Source: Paraspadella gotoi
Lineage: Eukaryota; Animalia; Chaetognatha
NCBI GenBank assembly: GCA_051294375.1
Contig: JBJCIZ010001592.1
Span: forward strand, 1 to 6,530
Reading direction: 5' to 3'
Length of the DNA stretch: 6,530 bases
Shown: piece after piece, positions 1 to 6,530 of the stretch
Position numbering within the stretch: the first letter of the stretch is position 1
Layout: every line of letters starts with the position of its first letter
Translations under genes and position numbers: made by a program
The notes under the pieces: generated by a model
What the model saw: the letters and a program-made list of their open reading frames with translations, nothing else
Databases searched by the model: none
What the model was told of the DNA's origin: nothing

Positions 1-303
1 AGTAAAGTGATACAACAATACATGCCAGTCAACGGACATCAAACTTGCGATCACAAGATGTCGCCATCTTTCATAGTTCAAATTATAGTCTGCTTGATCT
101 ATATGTAACGGTTAAAGCAGGCGCCTGATAAAGTAATATGTGATGCCTGATAATTATTATTGAGGTGTTAACATTAAAATAGTAAAGTGTATGATGGCCG
201 AGTGTCATGATCAAAGTATCATGGCCAGGGAACATCGGGTTCGAATCCCGATGATGGTACTCTTATTTTCATTAATTTTATATTGAGTTGGATTCAGGCT
301 ACA
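1..303 (-). repeat. 3' LTR (partial; about 34 bp lie outside the window)
   Basis: Aligns by eye with 5306-5605 (shared blocks include tcacaagatgtcgccatctttcatagttc and ggttaaagcaggcgcctgata). Similarity stops exactly at gattcaggctaca (303), which reads TGTAG on the minus strand. Confidence 0.95.
188..269 (+). ncRNA. tRNA-like / Pol III type-2 promoter cassette inside the 3' LTR (putative)
   Basis: A-box-like TGGCCGAGTG at 195-204; B box GGTTCGAATCC at 238-248 within hairpin CATCGGG-TTCGAAT-CCCGATG (233-253); TTTT at 266-269. Confidence 0.55.
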
Positions 304-311
304 CGCCCCCC
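304..311 (-). promoter_or_regulatory. Polypurine tract (plus-strand primer)
   Basis: Minus strand GGGGGGCG lies immediately before the TGTAG start of the 3' LTR. Confidence 0.8.
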
Positions 312-734
312 AGACTAAATGAGGGGGGAAAAATTATTATTTCCACGATTTTAGGCTAATTCATTTGAAAAATAGTATAACTTTTTAGCCGAGAGAAAGT
401 AAATACAAAAACTAACTATTTAACTAATAATTTGTTTGTTGAGACAAATTGTAAGTGATGGTTATGATGGATGATACTTTAACGAATTAAGGTATTGTTT
501 AACGAATGCAACTTGTTTAAAAATTCGGATTACTAAGTACTTTTGGTTTAAAAGATTCACAACTTGATTGTGATTAACGAGTAAAAAGTAAAAAAAATAA
601 CGAGTGAGATTTGATTAGTAATTAAGATACTAATACAGTTAATCAAAAAGGTTGGGCTCAAAATATTTAACCGTGCTTCGGTTTTAAAATTCGAATAATT
701 GAGTTTGGGAAATGAAATGGCCCATTTGAGACTT

Positions 735-762
735 GGTTCATTGAGGTTCATTGAGGTTCATT
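735..762. repeat. 10-bp tandem repeat (GGTTCATTGA x ~2.8) over the pol stop codon
   Basis: ggttcattga ggttcattga ggttcatt read directly. Confidence 0.85.
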
Positions 763-1199
763 TGATGGATTAAATGTTTCAACACGGGTGCGTACGAGCG
801 TCGAATACTCGCCACGTCTCTTGGCGGTGGGCGTGGCCACGCTGCTCGGTGGGAAAAATTTTCCAGAGAGGTGCGTGAGGATTGAGCGAGGGGAGAGGGG
901 GGCCTCGTTGGCGTTTTGGGAGCAGGGAGTGGCGGGAAATCGATCTCGTAGCCTGGAGGAGGCGTAGAAAAGGTCGACGAAGGAGGGGGAAGAAGAGGGG
1001 GAGGATGAGGAGGAGGAGAGGGAATCGGAGTGGGGGGAGGAGCTTGAGAATTTCCCCGAGTCGACGATCGTAATACTCGTGTCGATGTTGGAGGGATTCT
1101 CGTGCGGCGTCCGGGCGGACGGCCCGGAGGACGAGGTGAGGGAGGCGGGGAGGGCGTATCGGAGGCGGAGTTGTTGTTGTTGTCGCGGTCCATCCACGC

Positions 1200-2230
1200 C
1201 GGTTTCAAACGAGAGATAGATACGTTTTCAGTTCCTCTGCCGGGCAATTCGATCCTGAAGGTTAATTCATCGCGTGAAATCACTCGATATGGGCCCAGAT
1301 ATGGCGCTGAGAGTGGCGGGGCCACGCCTCCGCGGCGGACGAAAACGTGTGAGGCGTTGCGGAGGTTTGTAGGTAAATGAATTTGAGGCTGGCGATGTGT
1401 TGACGTGGCTGTTGGTTGGAGGCGAGACACTTCGAGTCGGAGATTTGAAAGCAGGAGGCGACGTTGGCGGTTCTCGTCAGCGTCACTTCCGGTCTCCAAT
1501 GGAAGTAGCGTTCCGGGCACGGCAATCGATTCGCCGTAAACCAGCTCCGCTGGGGACGCTCCGACGTCGGGTTTTAGCGTCGTTCGAATTGCCAGGAGGG
1601 CGCAGGGGAGGCGCCAGAACCATTCACCGCGGTTTTCGGCGCCGAGCGCTATCAATGATTCTTTTAGACGGCGGTGAAAGCGTTCGACTAAGCCATTGGC
1701 TTGTGGATGATATGCCGTCGTCATTTGATGTTTAATTCCCCATGAACGGAGTAATTGAGACCATGTAGAGGAGAGAAATTGCGAGCCTCTGTCGGTGGTT
1801 ATAATTGATGGTATGCCGAAAGAGGATATCCATCCATGCGTTAGGGCGTCGATGACTGACTTGGCGGAGATGTCCTTTATGGGGATGGCTTGAGGCCATC
1901 GAGTAAAGCGATCTACAATTGTCAACAAATACTTGAAACCATTCGATGGGGGTAGGTGAACGATGTCGACATGTAGGTGGGTAAATCGGCGATCGGGGAG
2001 TTGGAATTGGCCAATCTCTGGTACAGTGTTCTTAGAGACTTTTGCACGTTGGCAGTCGAGACATTCTCTCGCCCACTTGCTGACGTCAGAACGCATCGAC
2101 GGCCAAACGAATTTGTCGCCGATTGTTTGTCGAGTTCGCTCGACGCCGGGATGGCCGAGGCCGTGAACGGCGTCAAAGATCCGCCGGCGCCATGAATAAG
2201 GGACGAATGGGCGGATGGGACCATTGCTGA
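1200..2230 (-). other. Integrase domain of Pol (HHCC, DDE core, GPY module; approximate bounds)
   Basis: HGLGH...CLDC zinc finger; HVDIV, TTDRGSQF, NGLVERFHR catalytic motifs; PYLGPYRV and VSISRLKPA. The domain is uninterrupted in ORF 738..2537. Confidence 0.96.
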
Positions 2231-2459
2231 CATCGACTACTATTTGTTGTTCACCGATTGGGACGCGTCGGAATCGTAGACCTGTCTGTGCATCCTGGAA
2301 AATGCGCTGAAAGTGGTCATAGAATAATGTGAGGCCACTATTGGGGGTGGGGGTTGGTTTTTGGGTAAGGATAATGAGGGAAAAGAATGAGAGCGGAGTA
2401 GAATCAGGTGAAGGGGGAGGTGGAGAAGGGGGAGTGGCTTGTTTTTGTGCATTTGGTCT

Positions 2460-2825
2460 TGACAGTGCGTCGGCAACCACGTTTGCTTTACCGGCCAGAT
2501 ATCGGATATCGGTAGTGAATTCTGCTATGCCCGCCAACTGATAGGTTTGACGGGCAGTGTGTGGTTCAGATTTTTTAGCAAGAGCGGGACGAGAGATTTG
2601 TGGTCGGTATACAGGGTGAAACTGCGGCCTTCAATCATCGGTCGAAAGTGTCGAATCGCGCGGAAGGCCGCCAGCAATTCCCTGTCGAAAGGAGGCCACT
2701 GCTGCTGGTTGGCATGAAGCTTCGCTGAGAAGAAGGATAAAGGCTCCCACCCAGTCGGGCCTCGCTGCTCGAGTACGGCGCCTATCGCTGTGTTGGAGGC
2801 GTCGGCTGTTACGGCGAGTTGAGCA
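2460..2825 (-). other. RNase H domain of Pol (approximate bounds)
   Basis: TADASNTAIGAVLEQ, DRELLAAFRAIRHF, YTDHKSL, NVVADALSR. Confidence 0.93.
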
Positions 2826-3099
2826 TTTGCTCGAGGGTGGTGGAGCATGACGGCTCTGGACAAAGCTTCCTTTGTGGCTTCGAATGCAGCTTGGCATGGT
2901 TCGTCCCACTTGAGGATCTTGGGCTTACTCTTGAGGGCCTCAAACAATGGGTACATGTGCTGGCGGACCTGGGTAAGAATCGCCTGTAATAGTTGATCAT
3001 GCCCAGGAACCTCTGGAGCTCCTTGATGAGGTGGGCGGCGTTGTTTTTTGGATTGCCTCGATACGAGTTGGTAAAGGTGCGATTCCATTTTGATCCACG

Positions 3100-3640
3100 T
3101 GATAGCCCAAGAATTCGAGGGACGATTTACCGAAAACGCATTTTTTCCGGTTTATTACAAGGCCATTCTGGTTTAAGATCTCGAAAACCTCTTTGAGATG
3201 TTGCTCATGTTCGATGTGGTTTGCTGAGGCTACTAAGATATCGTCTATATAGACGAATACGTGAGGTATGTCGGCCAAGATTTCATCCATGAGTCTTTGG
3301 AAAATCTTGCCCCGCATTTTTTTAACCCAAAGGGGTGCGGGGAAAGACAAAAAGGCCAAAGGGGGCAATGACTCCAGTTTTTTTGACATGTTCTTCGGCC
3401 ACTGGAATTTGATGGTAGCCTTTTAGTAAGTCTATCTTACTGAACACTTTTTTACCGGCTAGATTTGCATTGAAGTTGTTCAATGTTTTGACGGGATACT
3501 TATCGTCAGTTGTGATGTTATTTAGCCGTCGATAGTCACCATAGACTCGATAGCCGCCGTCGTGTTTACTGACTACCAGCAACGGTGAGGCCCACTCGCT
3601 TTTGGCGCGCTTGGCAATGCCCAATTGGCAGAGCTTTTCG
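3100..3640 (-). other. Reverse transcriptase domain of Pol (approximate bounds)
   Basis: SEWASPLLVV, DYRRLN, FSKIDLLKGYHQIPV, PFGLF, FQRLMD, catalytic YIDD (3251-3240), KCVF...LEFLG. Confidence 0.96.
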
Positions 3641-3919
3641 AGCTCGGCCTTCGCTACCTCGAGTTTGTCTGGGGCGAGTCTGCGGGCTTGGGATTGGACG
3701 GGTCGACCTGTGGGGATGTAGTGTCGAACCCCGTGCTTTGGTTCCTTGGGTTTGAAGGAGGGTGTACAGAGGTCTGGATAGTTGTCCAGCAGCTTGTAGT
3801 AAGGGTCGTCTAATTGATCTACAAAGTTTACTCTGATTGTTTCTTCTACAGGTGAGTGTTGTGCTCTCAAAATCGAATAATCCTGCAAGTCAAGTAAAAA
3901 ACCATCGCGATGGTTGGGA

Positions 3920-4185
3920 GCAAGGTAGTTTTCGGCCAAAAAATCTGATCCGAGTGGGTTGGGACACGTCTGCAATGGTAAGCCTGTATGGAAATTTTCT
4001 CCCGTCGAGATGGACTTGCACATCTCTATATCCATAACAGGGTATTAGGGTGCCATTTGCAGCTTGCAATTTGGTTGGGGTTTCTCCTTGTTTTCTATCG
4101 TCCTCGGTGGAACTATCAAGACTAAGGCTCCACCATCGATGAGCCAGTTGCAATTGTTTACAGCATCGTGAACGAAGAGAAGGTT
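3920..4185 (-). other. Aspartic protease domain of Pol (approximate bounds)
   Basis: LLFVHD...WLIDGGALV, then KLQAANGTLIPCYG...LTIADVSQP and LGSDFL across three frames. These match the retropepsin active-site, flap and ILGxDFL motifs. Confidence 0.85.
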
Positions 4186-4205: not shown

Positions 4206-4254
4206 GGCCGGGAGCGACGGCGTTCACCTCCGTCCTCCGGCCCTGAAGTTTTCC
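4206..4254 (-). promoter_or_regulatory. Putative -1 programmed ribosomal frameshift signal (gag-pol)
   Basis: G_GAA_AAC in the gag frame (4254-4248), a 5-nt spacer, then a stem-loop GGCCGG..GACGG-loop-CCGTC..CCGGCC (4242-4206). The protease frame is -1 relative to gag. Confidence 0.75.
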
Positions 4255-4814
4255 GCCTTGTTTTTGTAGCAGCCCGGTTCACATTGCCTTGCGGCATCGC
4301 CGAAGGTTTTGTGATAGAAACAAACCTCCACGGAGGTAGTTTTTGCTGCATTTGACGAGCGTGGAGGGTTTGCCTTGTTGGCGGAGAACCTCCTGTTGGG
4401 AAATCGAGTCGACGGGTTGCTGCGGCGGAAAGGTTGTTGGCGTGGACGATTGATGGCATTGATGGAGTCGCCTTCCTCTGCGGCATCTTCGGGCATCAGC
4501 GGTGGGACAGCGGCGTTGATAGTCGACGAGGTGTTGGAGACATGAAGGGTCTGTCCATCCTTGTCGAAATACGAATCCGCTAGTTGTGCTGCTGCTTCAG
4601 CATCGACTTTCTCTACTCGCTCAGCCAGGTTTCGTTGCACTTCAATTGGTAATTCGCGTATCAACAACTCTTTGAGAATGTCGTCGACGCTTACGTCGCC
4701 TGCCTTCTCCTTCATGATCGCGAGAAGTTGTGAAGGGCGACGTCCTTCACGACGGATACCGTCGATTAATGAGGCAGCTTGCTGCGACCTCGTGCGGCCG
4801 TATTCGTATTCGGC
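4224..4814 (-). CDS. gag: Gag (C-terminal part; true start upstream and unresolved, possibly near the ATG at 5120)
   Basis: The frame of ORF 4224..4715 is open back to 4814 and reads YGRTRSQQAASLIDGIRREGRRPSQLLAIMKEKAG...DDILKELLIRELP...AAAQLAD, resembling the Gag core of this lineage. C-terminal CFYHKTFGDAARQCEPGC (4322-4269) is CX2HX9CX3C. Confidence 0.88.
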   Translation of the reverse strand, partial: AEYEYGRTRSQQAASLIDGIRREGRRPSQLLAIMKEKAGDVSVDDILKELLIRELPIEVQRNLAERVEKVDAEAAAQLADSYFDKDGQTLHVSNTSSTINAAVPPLMPEDAAEEGDSINAINRPRQQPFRRSNPSTRFPNRRFSANKANPPRSSNAAKTTSVEVCFYHKTFGDAARQCEPGCYKNKAENFRAGGRR

Positions 4815-5259: not shown

Positions 5260-5269
5260 GGGTCACGCA
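5260..5269 (-). promoter_or_regulatory. Primer-binding site, tRNA-Trp type
   Basis: Minus strand reads CTACA-AC-TG(C)GTGACCC, 2 nt after the LTR end. Apart from one extra base it equals TGGTGACCC, the complement of the tRNA-Trp 3' end (...GGGUCACCA). Confidence 0.75.
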
Positions 5270-5271
5270 GT

Positions 5272-5605
5272 TGTAGAAAACGGACTTTTTATGTATTCAG
5301 AGAAAAGTGAAAGTGATCAACAATACATTGCAGTCACGGACATCAACTTAGCATCACAAGATGTCGCCATCTTTCATAGTTCAAAATTATAGTCTGCTTG
5401 ATCTATATGTAACCGGTTAAAGCAGGCGCCTGATAAAAGTAATATGTGATCCTGATAATTATTATTTGAGATGTTAACATTAAAATAAGTAAAAGTGTAT
5501 TAATGGCCGAGTGGTCATGATCAATTATCATGGCCAGGGAAACATCGGGTTCGAAATCCCGATGATGACTCCTATTTTTTATATTGAATGTTGATTCAGG
5601 CTACA
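5272..5605 (-). repeat. 5' LTR (complete, 334 bp)
   Basis: Starts tgtag (5272-5276) and ends ctaca (5601-5605): a 5-bp terminal inverted repeat with canonical TG...CA. It is a direct repeat of 1-303 and abuts the PBS. Confidence 0.92.
5496..5580 (+). ncRNA. tRNA-like / Pol III type-2 promoter cassette inside the 5' LTR (putative)
   Basis: A box TGGCCGAGTGG at 5504-5514; hairpin TGGTCATGAT-caatt-ATCATGGCCA (5512-5536); T-arm-like CATCGGG-TTCGAAAT-CCCGATG (5543-5564, one extra A versus the other LTR); T6 at 5575-5580. Confidence 0.55.
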
Positions 5606-5629
5606 AGTCAACTTAACTTGGGGTTTTTT

Positions 5630-5690
5630 TCCATGCAAACTCAATTTCCCACTGCTCGATTCCATGCAAACTTTATATCCGCTGCTCAAT
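5630..5690. repeat. Imperfect 30-31-bp tandem duplication in the flank
   Basis: tccatgcaaactcaatttcccactgctcgat (5630-5660) followed by tccatgcaaactttatatccgctgctcaat (5661-5690). Confidence 0.75.
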
Positions 5691-6530
5691 CACACACTTT
5701 CCTACGACCATAAATTGAATCTGGGATCTATCCATTCAATTATTGATTAATTCATTAATAATGGTTTAAACTTATTAAAAAGACGTCAAACGAGAAGAAG
5801 TGAGACATGTTTTTTTTCCATTTAAACTCATTTCCACTCGCACGATTCATTCGAAACTTACTATGTCCAGGTCAACCGCGATGACACGGGTCGTAGAGGG
5901 CGCGACAGGCAGAGAGAATGTGTTGCGTTGAGTGAGTGTTCGATCCGATCCATCAGGAGTAGATTGGGAGTAAGTGGGAAGAGGTGGACGGGATTGAGCG
6001 GAGGCGGAGACGGGAGCGGAGCGCGATCGGTGTGTTTTGGTGTGTGTTGTGTAATGCTAGGCAGAGTGATGAGGTGGGTCTGGGATGTGATGGTAAAAAT
6101 AATAGTAAGAGATGCCAATCCATGCGTAGGCGCACTCAACAGAATTTAGTAGCGGTGGCACAGGGCGGGAGCGGGGTCGCAGAATGAGATTAGTAGAGTG
6201 CGGATCTGTGATTAGCAGATCGCGAAACTAAATTTTTCAGCTTGTTAATAAATAGACGGTTTATTTACGATTCTATGACAAATCAAATCTGCAAAAAATC
6301 GTAAAATCCCCTTCTTTTAGGAAATTTTACAAATTTAAGTGTTAAATTTTTAGACTTCTTTATACTACCGCGTTTTATATCAGGTGCCGTGGTTTCGAGT
6401 AAAAGTATTGTTACGGAACGGAAAGCTCTAATTAAATAAAACAAAAAATTAATTCGCAAGCCATATCGAAATTAGGTTCCGTTAACCGTTAATTTTCGAG
6501 AAATTATTAATCAATTAATTTAAAAAGTTA

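Follow-up and report, generated by a model that had tools for sequence, protein, structure and literature searches.

The window analysed here is a stretch of 6,530 nucleotides from the chaetognath Paraspadella gotoi (contig JBJCIZ010001592.1). It contains a single Ty3/gypsy element of 5.6 kb, which lies on the minus strand and encodes gag and pol. The 5' LTR (5272 to 5605, minus strand) is 334 bp long with TG...CA ends; the 3' LTR (1 to 303, minus strand) is clipped by the window edge, and about 30 bp of it are absent. A gag piece with a CX2HX9CX3C (CHCC) motif was found at 4224 to 4715 (minus strand). Pol occupies 738 to 4035 (minus strand), where it is spread over several frames in this read and codes for reverse transcriptase, RNase H and an integrase with a GPY motif. 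Between pol and the 3' LTR, neither an open reading frame of at least 80 amino acids nor an env gene was found. The polypurine tract (PPT) is located at 304 to 314 (minus strand), and a relative termed L008 has a matching tract followed by an identical LTR start. The primer binding site (PBS) at 5260 to 5269 (minus strand) is probably of the tRNA-Trp type. In this noisy read it is one letter longer than the PBS printed for the CsRn1 clade, and the two agree over about 9 bases (PMC2582038, in part). CsRn1 features present in the element include the gag CHCC motif, the order of reverse transcriptase, RNase H and integrase, and the GPY/F motif. As far as can be judged from such motifs, CHCC and GPY agree with the definition of the CsRn1 clade, and the putative tRNA-Trp-type PBS would agree with it as well (PMC2582038, in part). 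Named relatives from a schistosome, a nematode and a pseudoscorpion show 37-46% identity where measured.

The two LTR copies were aligned over 286 bases and show 6 mismatches and 31 internal gap positions, mostly single-base gaps. Since the copies differ mainly by such gaps, and many of these are absent from short-read contigs, the window looks like an uncorrected long read. A putative Pol II core promoter of the LTR was placed at 5355 to 5410 (minus strand), with a TATA-like stretch at 5402 to 5409 and a small hairpin at 5358 to 5373. A poly(A)-like signal was read near 5290 on the minus strand. From the TATA-like stretch near 5405 and the poly(A)-like signal we infer a U3 location for the Pol III-like unit described below, with the unit running in the direction opposite to Pol II transcription, in agreement with a preliminary description of this DNA, which had put it on the U3 side. 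A stretch of 33 bases near the presumed Pol II start (5349 to 5381, with the small hairpin) recurs in several short and deeper contigs of run X9 that have other loose ends, which suggests that other LTR families share it. The flank at 5620 to 5870 contains short imperfect repeats. Next to the insertion, 5657 to 5700 reached a contig depth of 26,000-30,000 in run X4 and is a very abundant host repeat.

Both LTRs contain a predicted Pol III unit on the plus strand, antisense to the PBS, pol and the PPT. The unit is about 85 bp long and has separable boxes, spacer and terminator. In the 5' LTR it spans 5496 to 5580 and is directed out of the element; in the 3' LTR it spans 188 to 269 and is directed towards pol. 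The right copy has its A box at 5504 to 5514, a 10-bp hairpin between the boxes at 5512 to 5536, with the listed copy differences in its loop, and a 7-bp T-arm-like hairpin at 5543 to 5564, which encloses the B box (5548 to 5559, with one extra base in the read). In the left copy, the A box lies at 195 to 205, the B box at 238 to 248 and the T arm at 233 to 253. The starts of the boxes are 43 nt apart in the left copy and 44 nt in the right copy, and the T stem forms 7/7 pairs in both. Box spacing, perfect T-arm-like hairpin and inter-box hairpin were thus all recovered as the preliminary description had given them. Its statement that the B box of the left copy is exact also holds, but the left A box is one G short and the right B box carries one extra A, so that neither copy has both boxes exact in the read. 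In short-read contigs, both boxes were intact on each copy in four of four runs. Since contigs from all four runs lack the one-letter differences, these are most likely read errors. The T run follows about 14-17 nt after the B box and is the predicted Pol III terminator. An oligo-T run directly after the unit had been reported, and a run is indeed present (5575 to 5580, T6 in the read). The contigs, as deduced from loose ends, instead carry T4 followed by a second T4; the left copy has T4 at 266 to 269 and again at 276 to 279. T4 is a minimal terminator.

Of 1000 dinucleotide-shuffled versions of the window, 8 contained a site with the loose pattern of a B box, an upstream A box and a downstream T4. 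On the plus strand, the unit reached fold z-scores of only -1.9 to -2.75. ARAGORN predicted no tRNA gene, and no Rfam tRNA match was obtained in the whole window at E up to 10. When the left copy was scored alone, it reached 12.2 bits against a cut-off of 29. The acceptor stem forms 4/7 pairs and the D stem is absent. These results rule out an ordinary tRNA gene, as had been stated before. Three other candidates were rejected. For a twister ribozyme, the Rfam search of the window remained negative up to an E-value of 10. The 3' end of the unit, read from the sequence, lacks the complementarity to the PBS that a self-made primer would have. A tRNA-derived SINE head was discarded because the T run comes right after the T arm, with no body or tail, in the window and in two relatives, L007 and L008. 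Irrespective of its use, the unit is probably a real Pol III transcription unit.

Contig depth served as a rough guide that gives no copy number. In the main contigs of run X4, depth was 1,382 over the unit, 1,178 over the rest of the LTR and 299-339 over the element interior, compared with 26,000-30,000 over the neighbouring repeat. The depth over the unit is therefore similar to that of the rest of the LTR and about 4x that of the interior, and the neighbouring repeat is some 20x deeper. Thus no abundant repeat matches the unit at 80% identity or above, and an abundant host SINE, which the preliminary description had considered as an incidental source, was not found at this identity. The SINE check at 80% recovered only LTR-type contigs; more diverged SINEs would escape it. 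A second LTR subfamily was present in four of four runs. It keeps the unit and differs by 11 substitutions and 2 gaps over window positions 158 to 256. Five of the 11 substitutions are unlisted; those changes that are listed affect the acceptor-like 5' strand ahead of the A box, a free position within the A box and the loop of the hairpin, and the first T4 is kept. A comparison stretch of the LTR carries 12 changes in 87 positions versus 11 in about 100 for the unit region. Subfamily 2 shows that the unit is family-wide in the host; as this other stretch is about equally diverged, it does not demonstrate selection on the unit. With a single sister subfamily, and with no clear difference in conservation between the unit and the other part of the LTR, the case for selection within the window's own lineage is thin. 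The antisense type-2 Pol III layout of the preliminary description is nevertheless found in both LTRs, in contigs of all four runs and in the sister subfamily. In run X9, possibly RNA, contig depth was 90.5 for subfamily 2 and 23.8 for family 1, with the opposite relation in the DNA runs; we gave this no evidential weight.

One metagenome scan yielded five loci, of which L007 and L008 (64% integrase identity) reach a native 3' region. L009 was left unscored as foreign sequence replaces its 3' end, L010 ends within the integrase, and L011 is a weak match. In both scorable relatives, the antisense strand has, just past the end of pol, an A box and a B box at a distance of 42 nt, with a T5 26 nt from the B-box start. 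In shuffled sequences, the unit pattern arose with a frequency of 1/1000 for L007 and 3/1000 for L008. The PPT and LTR start of L008 lie about 900 nt beyond the unit, which places the L008 unit in the 3' UTR. The unit is not bound to the LTR: these relatives have it directly behind the pol stop codon. For L007 and L008, the acceptor stem forms 0/7 and 2/7 pairs and the T stem 5/7 and 4/7, and fold z-scores of the units were -0.9 to +0.3. The boxes, whose conservation in relatives the preliminary description had suggested testing, thus persist together with the terminator spacing, whereas the stems were not kept, and its emphasis on a structured RNA or tRNA mimic is not supported. Across the units, it is the boxes and the terminator spacing that persist, and the RNA fold does not. 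Of more distant elements, 0/6 loci from viral collections, whose 3' ends may be incomplete, and 0/2 long loci at 39% identity had a unit. The viral-contig scans had yielded these 6 distant loci at 25-31% identity, the other three viral scans being empty; of the genome-contig scans, the first was empty and the second gave 5 distant loci. The Gypsy elements L012, L013 and L014-L016, with identities of about 39-45%, come from bacterial genome bins, in which their contigs are most likely eukaryotic contamination.

The 3' non-coding regions of the window, L007 and L008 have only two 9-mers in common. One is the B box. The other is a motif at 652 to 660 of the window (minus strand), at 2576-2584 in L007 and at 2176-2184 in L008. 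Any of three candidate 9-mers was contained in 25/20,000 shuffles of the window UTR. The motif shared by the three elements indicates that their 3' UTRs are homologous and that the window element is without the unit where its relatives carry it; in the window, the motif is nearer to the pol end, and no unit is present at that place. On the Pol III strand, the motif lies exactly 45 nt upstream of the A box in L007 and L008, and it stands alone in the window. It also resembles part of one CsRn1 PBS form.

Several further observations were made on the relatives. At the contig end of L009, a tRNA- or SINE-like head (5312-5329) matches the A-box region of L007 in 17/18 bases (E 0.07), and a head of this kind is a possible host source of the clade's unit. 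The region that takes the place of the Gypsy 3' end in L009 (4400-5345) is other, unrelated sequence; its reverse strand resembles what we take to be a decayed Penelope-type endonuclease. In L007 (2370-2700), the C-terminal Pol motif is missing and an ORF crosses the whole unit in another frame. L007 2515-2530 and L009 3483-3498 are identical over 16 bases, which in L009 are the codons after the first catalytic Asp of the integrase. The match extends over 11 bases in L008 and is absent for the other units. An RNA from the L007 unit would be antisense to sibling families at the integrase Asp codons, and the match may be due to chance.

In some cases, the Pol ORF does not stop at its conserved C-terminal motif but extends into the 3' UTR, where an antisense B box becomes readable as a peptide. 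P0107, which is 96% identical to L007 in the integrase, ties this peptide to the DNA unit. We used 240 cluster representatives (the best 120 of 1,415 and the best 120 of 902 matches); 205 have the anchor motif, and 26 have tails of at least 28 residues. Among these best representatives, the antisense B box was spelled in 12/26 long tails, in two reading frames. A Lys is found 6-7 residues ahead of the B-box peptide in 12/12 cases and is compatible with an antisense T run. As a background, the disordered region before the anchor was evaluated, with 23 matches in 37,324 residues and a Lys in 1/23. All 12 tails with a B box fall into one clade with L007 and L008 (support 100, two trees), with 12/18 long tails inside and 0/8 outside, the clade having been delimited after the B-box matches had been seen. 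Six of the 18 clade tails are without the signature; at least three of these stop before the expected site. The 8 tails outside the clade cross the PPT into the LTR start and carry no B-box signature, so the unit is not established for the whole group. In most other families the ORFs end at the anchor, ahead of the place where a unit could be read. In P0002, P0005, P0010, P0018, P0034, P0139, P0162 and P0170, pol crosses the PPT into the 3' LTR and there is no 3' UTR. The length of the 3' UTR varies widely, from 430 nt in the window and about 950 nt in L008 to none in eight families.

As a held-out set, 64 new proteins were collected with a search region that excluded the tail. The anchor was present in 52, and 13 had long tails, of which 6/13 stop by residue 30. 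The fixed pattern was matched in 3/13, all with Lys at -6, against 0.14 expected, and one more match was seen in the third frame. This third frame was left out of the counts because the conserved protein motif GxRT fills its control region. More distant representatives gave 5 pattern matches in 17,444 post-integrase residues (143 proteins), none with Lys. The occurrence of the B box in different frames at one place points to a constraint on the DNA and not on the protein. The peptides establish only compatibility with the DNA motif, and GFEP and GSNP fit either strand; the antisense orientation follows from the other peptides, the Lys, and L007 and L008.

In both trees, the window element is placed apart from the clade that carries the unit. 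A tree joining it with the clade was not rejected by the AU test, with a p-AU of 0.42 and, when P0056 was added, of 0.66 with a likelihood above the free search. Its unit has little beyond the boxes in common with those of L007 and L008; compared with L008, a stretch of 25 bases around the T arm is 88% identical (E 0.24), and there is little else. In view of the position outside the clade and the low similarity of the units, these may be separate captures. Both a single ancestral unit that was relocated into U3 and a second capture are possible.

Our leading explanation, which we hold tentatively and at somewhat under an even chance, is that a captured tRNA gene has been worn down to a Pol III promoter plus terminator, and that it is kept since a bound Pol III complex would hold the chromatin open. 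In this model, TFIIIC would bind the A and B boxes, TFIIIB would sit on the AT-rich stretch between the unit and the Pol II promoter of the LTR, and Pol III would make an RNA of about 80 nt that ends at the T run and is largely a by-product. Being located in U3, the unit would be carried along by every new insertion and every solo LTR, and a Pol III site would then lie some 30 bp from the edge of each. The stop would matter as the unit points at pol, where read-through would produce a long antisense RNA. The kept terminator suggests that transcription may really occur and need a stop before it runs antisense into pol. We rank a cis effect of Pol III occupancy first because the features read by TFIIIC and Pol III on the DNA are kept, the RNA features for being a tRNA are lost, and the terminator is kept. 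A T run at this distance behind the B box corresponds to the acceptor strand of a tRNA gene plus a short trailer, which favours a captured tRNA gene over a SINE head. The backwards orientation would presumably spare the genomic RNA from tRNA-processing nucleases. In fission yeast, the tDNA barrier formed by the tDNA-Ala of cen1 needs TFIIIC and Pol III and is orientation-independent (PMC2040200, in part). A barrier role is easier to reconcile with a unit in U3 than with one in the 3' UTR as in the relatives, where the unit of L008 is about 900 nt away from the LTR. A wider reading, which is possible but doubtful, holds that a lineage of autonomous animal Gypsy elements has domesticated a tRNA gene as its own Pol III small-RNA gene, movable between 3' UTR and U3, with the RNA or the Pol III complex countering silencing. 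We would liken such a gene, presumably, to the viral VA, EBER and TMER cassettes, beside those of foamy viruses.

Alternatively, the RNA product itself could be the point, as a small Pol III RNA acting in trans, as a decoy for defences based on RNA silencing or tRNA cutting, or as an antisense brake on the element's own 3' UTR. The conserved terminator would yield a defined RNA, and the RNA predicted for the window forms two clean hairpins whose stems are untouched by the listed changes between copies. The 10- and 7-bp stems are short for a pre-miRNA, and neither the fold nor the inter-box sequence is kept among the relatives. When the unit was compared with the element's own coding sequence, the longest exact matches were 9-10 nt and duplex energies lay in the range of shuffled sequences. 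Antisense targeting of pol is therefore not general, and we consider an RNA-based function unlikely, even with the precedents of the LTR cassettes of simian foamy virus, which have an A box, a B box and a terminator (PMC3993851, in part), and of the type-2 Pol III promoter of BLV, which is active in latency (PMC4992882, in part). A role of the sense strand is the least likely of the alternatives. Here, the genomic RNA would contain, in its 3' UTR or U3, the complement of the T arm and D loop of a tRNA, and the primer tRNA would pair with it. Ty3 of yeast has such a two-part primer site, in which T arm and D arm of the primer pair with U3, 4.8 kb from the 5' PBS (PMC5371799, in part). Such pairing would account for the antisense orientation and the 3'-end position and would suit a PBS whose agreement with the printed CsRn1 PBS is limited to about 9 bases. 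It leaves the T run at a fixed distance unexplained, and in eight relatives pol leads directly into the PPT and no unit occurs at that place. Moreover, the free positions of the B box vary (GFEP, GIEP, RLEP, GSNP, DSNP) like a promoter consensus and not like one tRNA, and the T stem of animal tRNA-Trp, as we assume it, differs from these units.

The unit could also be a neutral passenger, that is a tRNA gene, pseudogene or SINE head that inserted into the tolerant 3' end of an ancestor, the LTR copy in the window being a separate and younger accident. The wording of Kojima that "not a few" Repbase LTRs hold tRNA-like pieces (PMC10886601, in part) is in line with such an origin. The L009 end with its 17/18 match indicates that the host may have repeats of this kind, the unit is not clearly more conserved than its surroundings in subfamily 2, and 6/18 long clade tails lack the signature, though at least three end short of the site. 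Against a passenger, boxes and terminator spacing outlast the inter-box sequence and the fold over an integrase path between L007 and L008 of 0.35 changes per site, and the B box is one of only two 9-mers common to the three 3' non-coding regions. The T run follows at once, unlike in a SINE head with a body, and the depth over the unit, roughly as it can be read, resembles that of the LTR and not that of the neighbouring repeat. We therefore regard a mere passenger as distinctly unlikely, more so than a functional RNA and less so than a primer site. Compared with these alternatives, an occupied Pol III promoter acting on chromatin remains our first choice. As the unit of about 85 bp has separable parts, the rival mechanisms would be distinguishable by simple reporter changes.

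The literature was surveyed for similar arrangements. The clade to which the window element appears to belong, with PwRn1 and AgCR, shares the CHCC motif, probably the tRNA-Trp-type PBS, GPY, the order PR-RT-RH-IN and an LTR of about 330 bp, and its description, in the part covered, makes no mention of a Pol III unit (PMC2582038). Neither "polymerase III" nor "B box" occurs in the covered part of an LTR-modelling paper that includes CsRN1 (PMC3601003), and the covered parts of PMC12471100 and PMC3286476 contain nothing on Pol III units of this kind. Among open-access titles and the beginnings of abstracts, no description of an antisense, self-terminating Pol III unit in autonomous Gypsy elements was found, subscription journals and Repbase entries lying outside this scope. 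The feature is real and more widespread than the preliminary description had it. Capture of Pol III promoters by LTR retroelements is known as such; here it concerns an autonomous lineage and takes a form useless for self-transcription, with a predicted function.

If the unit were a portable chromatin barrier or a small-RNA gene, retrotransposons would have a means against silencing that is new, and the host genome would gain a Pol III site with every solo LTR that the window's family leaves behind. If it were a domesticated small-RNA gene, Ty3/gypsy elements would possess it as an accessory module, from which LTRs of the Helenus type could have arisen.

Of the known systems, Ty3 has tRNA-complementary sequence in the U3 of a Ty3/gypsy element. 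There, short segments match the single primer tRNA (PMC5371799, in part); here, a full arrangement of A box, B box and T run varies like a promoter. Foamy virus and BLV resemble our element in having units of A box, B box and terminator within an autonomous retroelement, located in the LTR in the former and internally in the latter. They are retroviruses, their long hairpins are processed to miRNAs, and expression has been shown (PMC3993851, PMC4992882, both in part). In contrast, the present stems have 10 and 7 bp, the fold is not kept in relatives, and the unit is known from sequence alone. tDNA barriers share the proposed mode, namely a Pol III unit that acts by occupancy of TFIIIC and Pol III in any orientation, as in S. 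pombe. They are host tRNA genes at fixed places (PMC2040200, in part), whereas here a degenerate predicted unit rides on a mobile element.

The preliminary description had named Cassandra as a precedent. This is valid in so far as Cassandra, like Helenus and Ajax, is a non-autonomous element whose LTRs contain a Pol III promoter (Kojima 2024, PMC10886601, in part), but Helenus, with tRNA boxes in its LTRs, is the nearer one. Other Repbase LTRs hold tRNA-like pieces, of which only short LTRs are analysed in the covered part of that paper. Helenus and TRIMp3 have tRNA-derived A and B boxes in both LTRs, with the boxes kept and the tRNA fold lost, and animal Helenus elements are thought to depend on Gypsy, some having a tRNA-Trp PBS (PMC10886601, in part). 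The four motifs of our unit had no matches in one text supplement file of PMC10886601; consensuses outside that file may bear on a kinship with Helenus. Helenus elements are non-coding and 311-1263 bp long, and their Pol III promoter is proposed to make the element RNA. The known Pol III promoters of LTRs serve the self-transcription of such small non-coding parasites, and according to the same paper their autonomous partners have to rely on Pol II, which makes LTRs of the Pol III type improbable in them (PMC10886601, in part). The window element, in contrast, is 5.6 kb long and encodes gag-pol, and its unit is inserted backwards and followed immediately by a T run, so that it cannot make the genomic RNA. 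Thus, where Helenus is proposed to use its promoter for itself, an autonomous lineage that keeps a backwards and self-terminating unit across many families must have it do something else, or must meet an unrecognised constraint.
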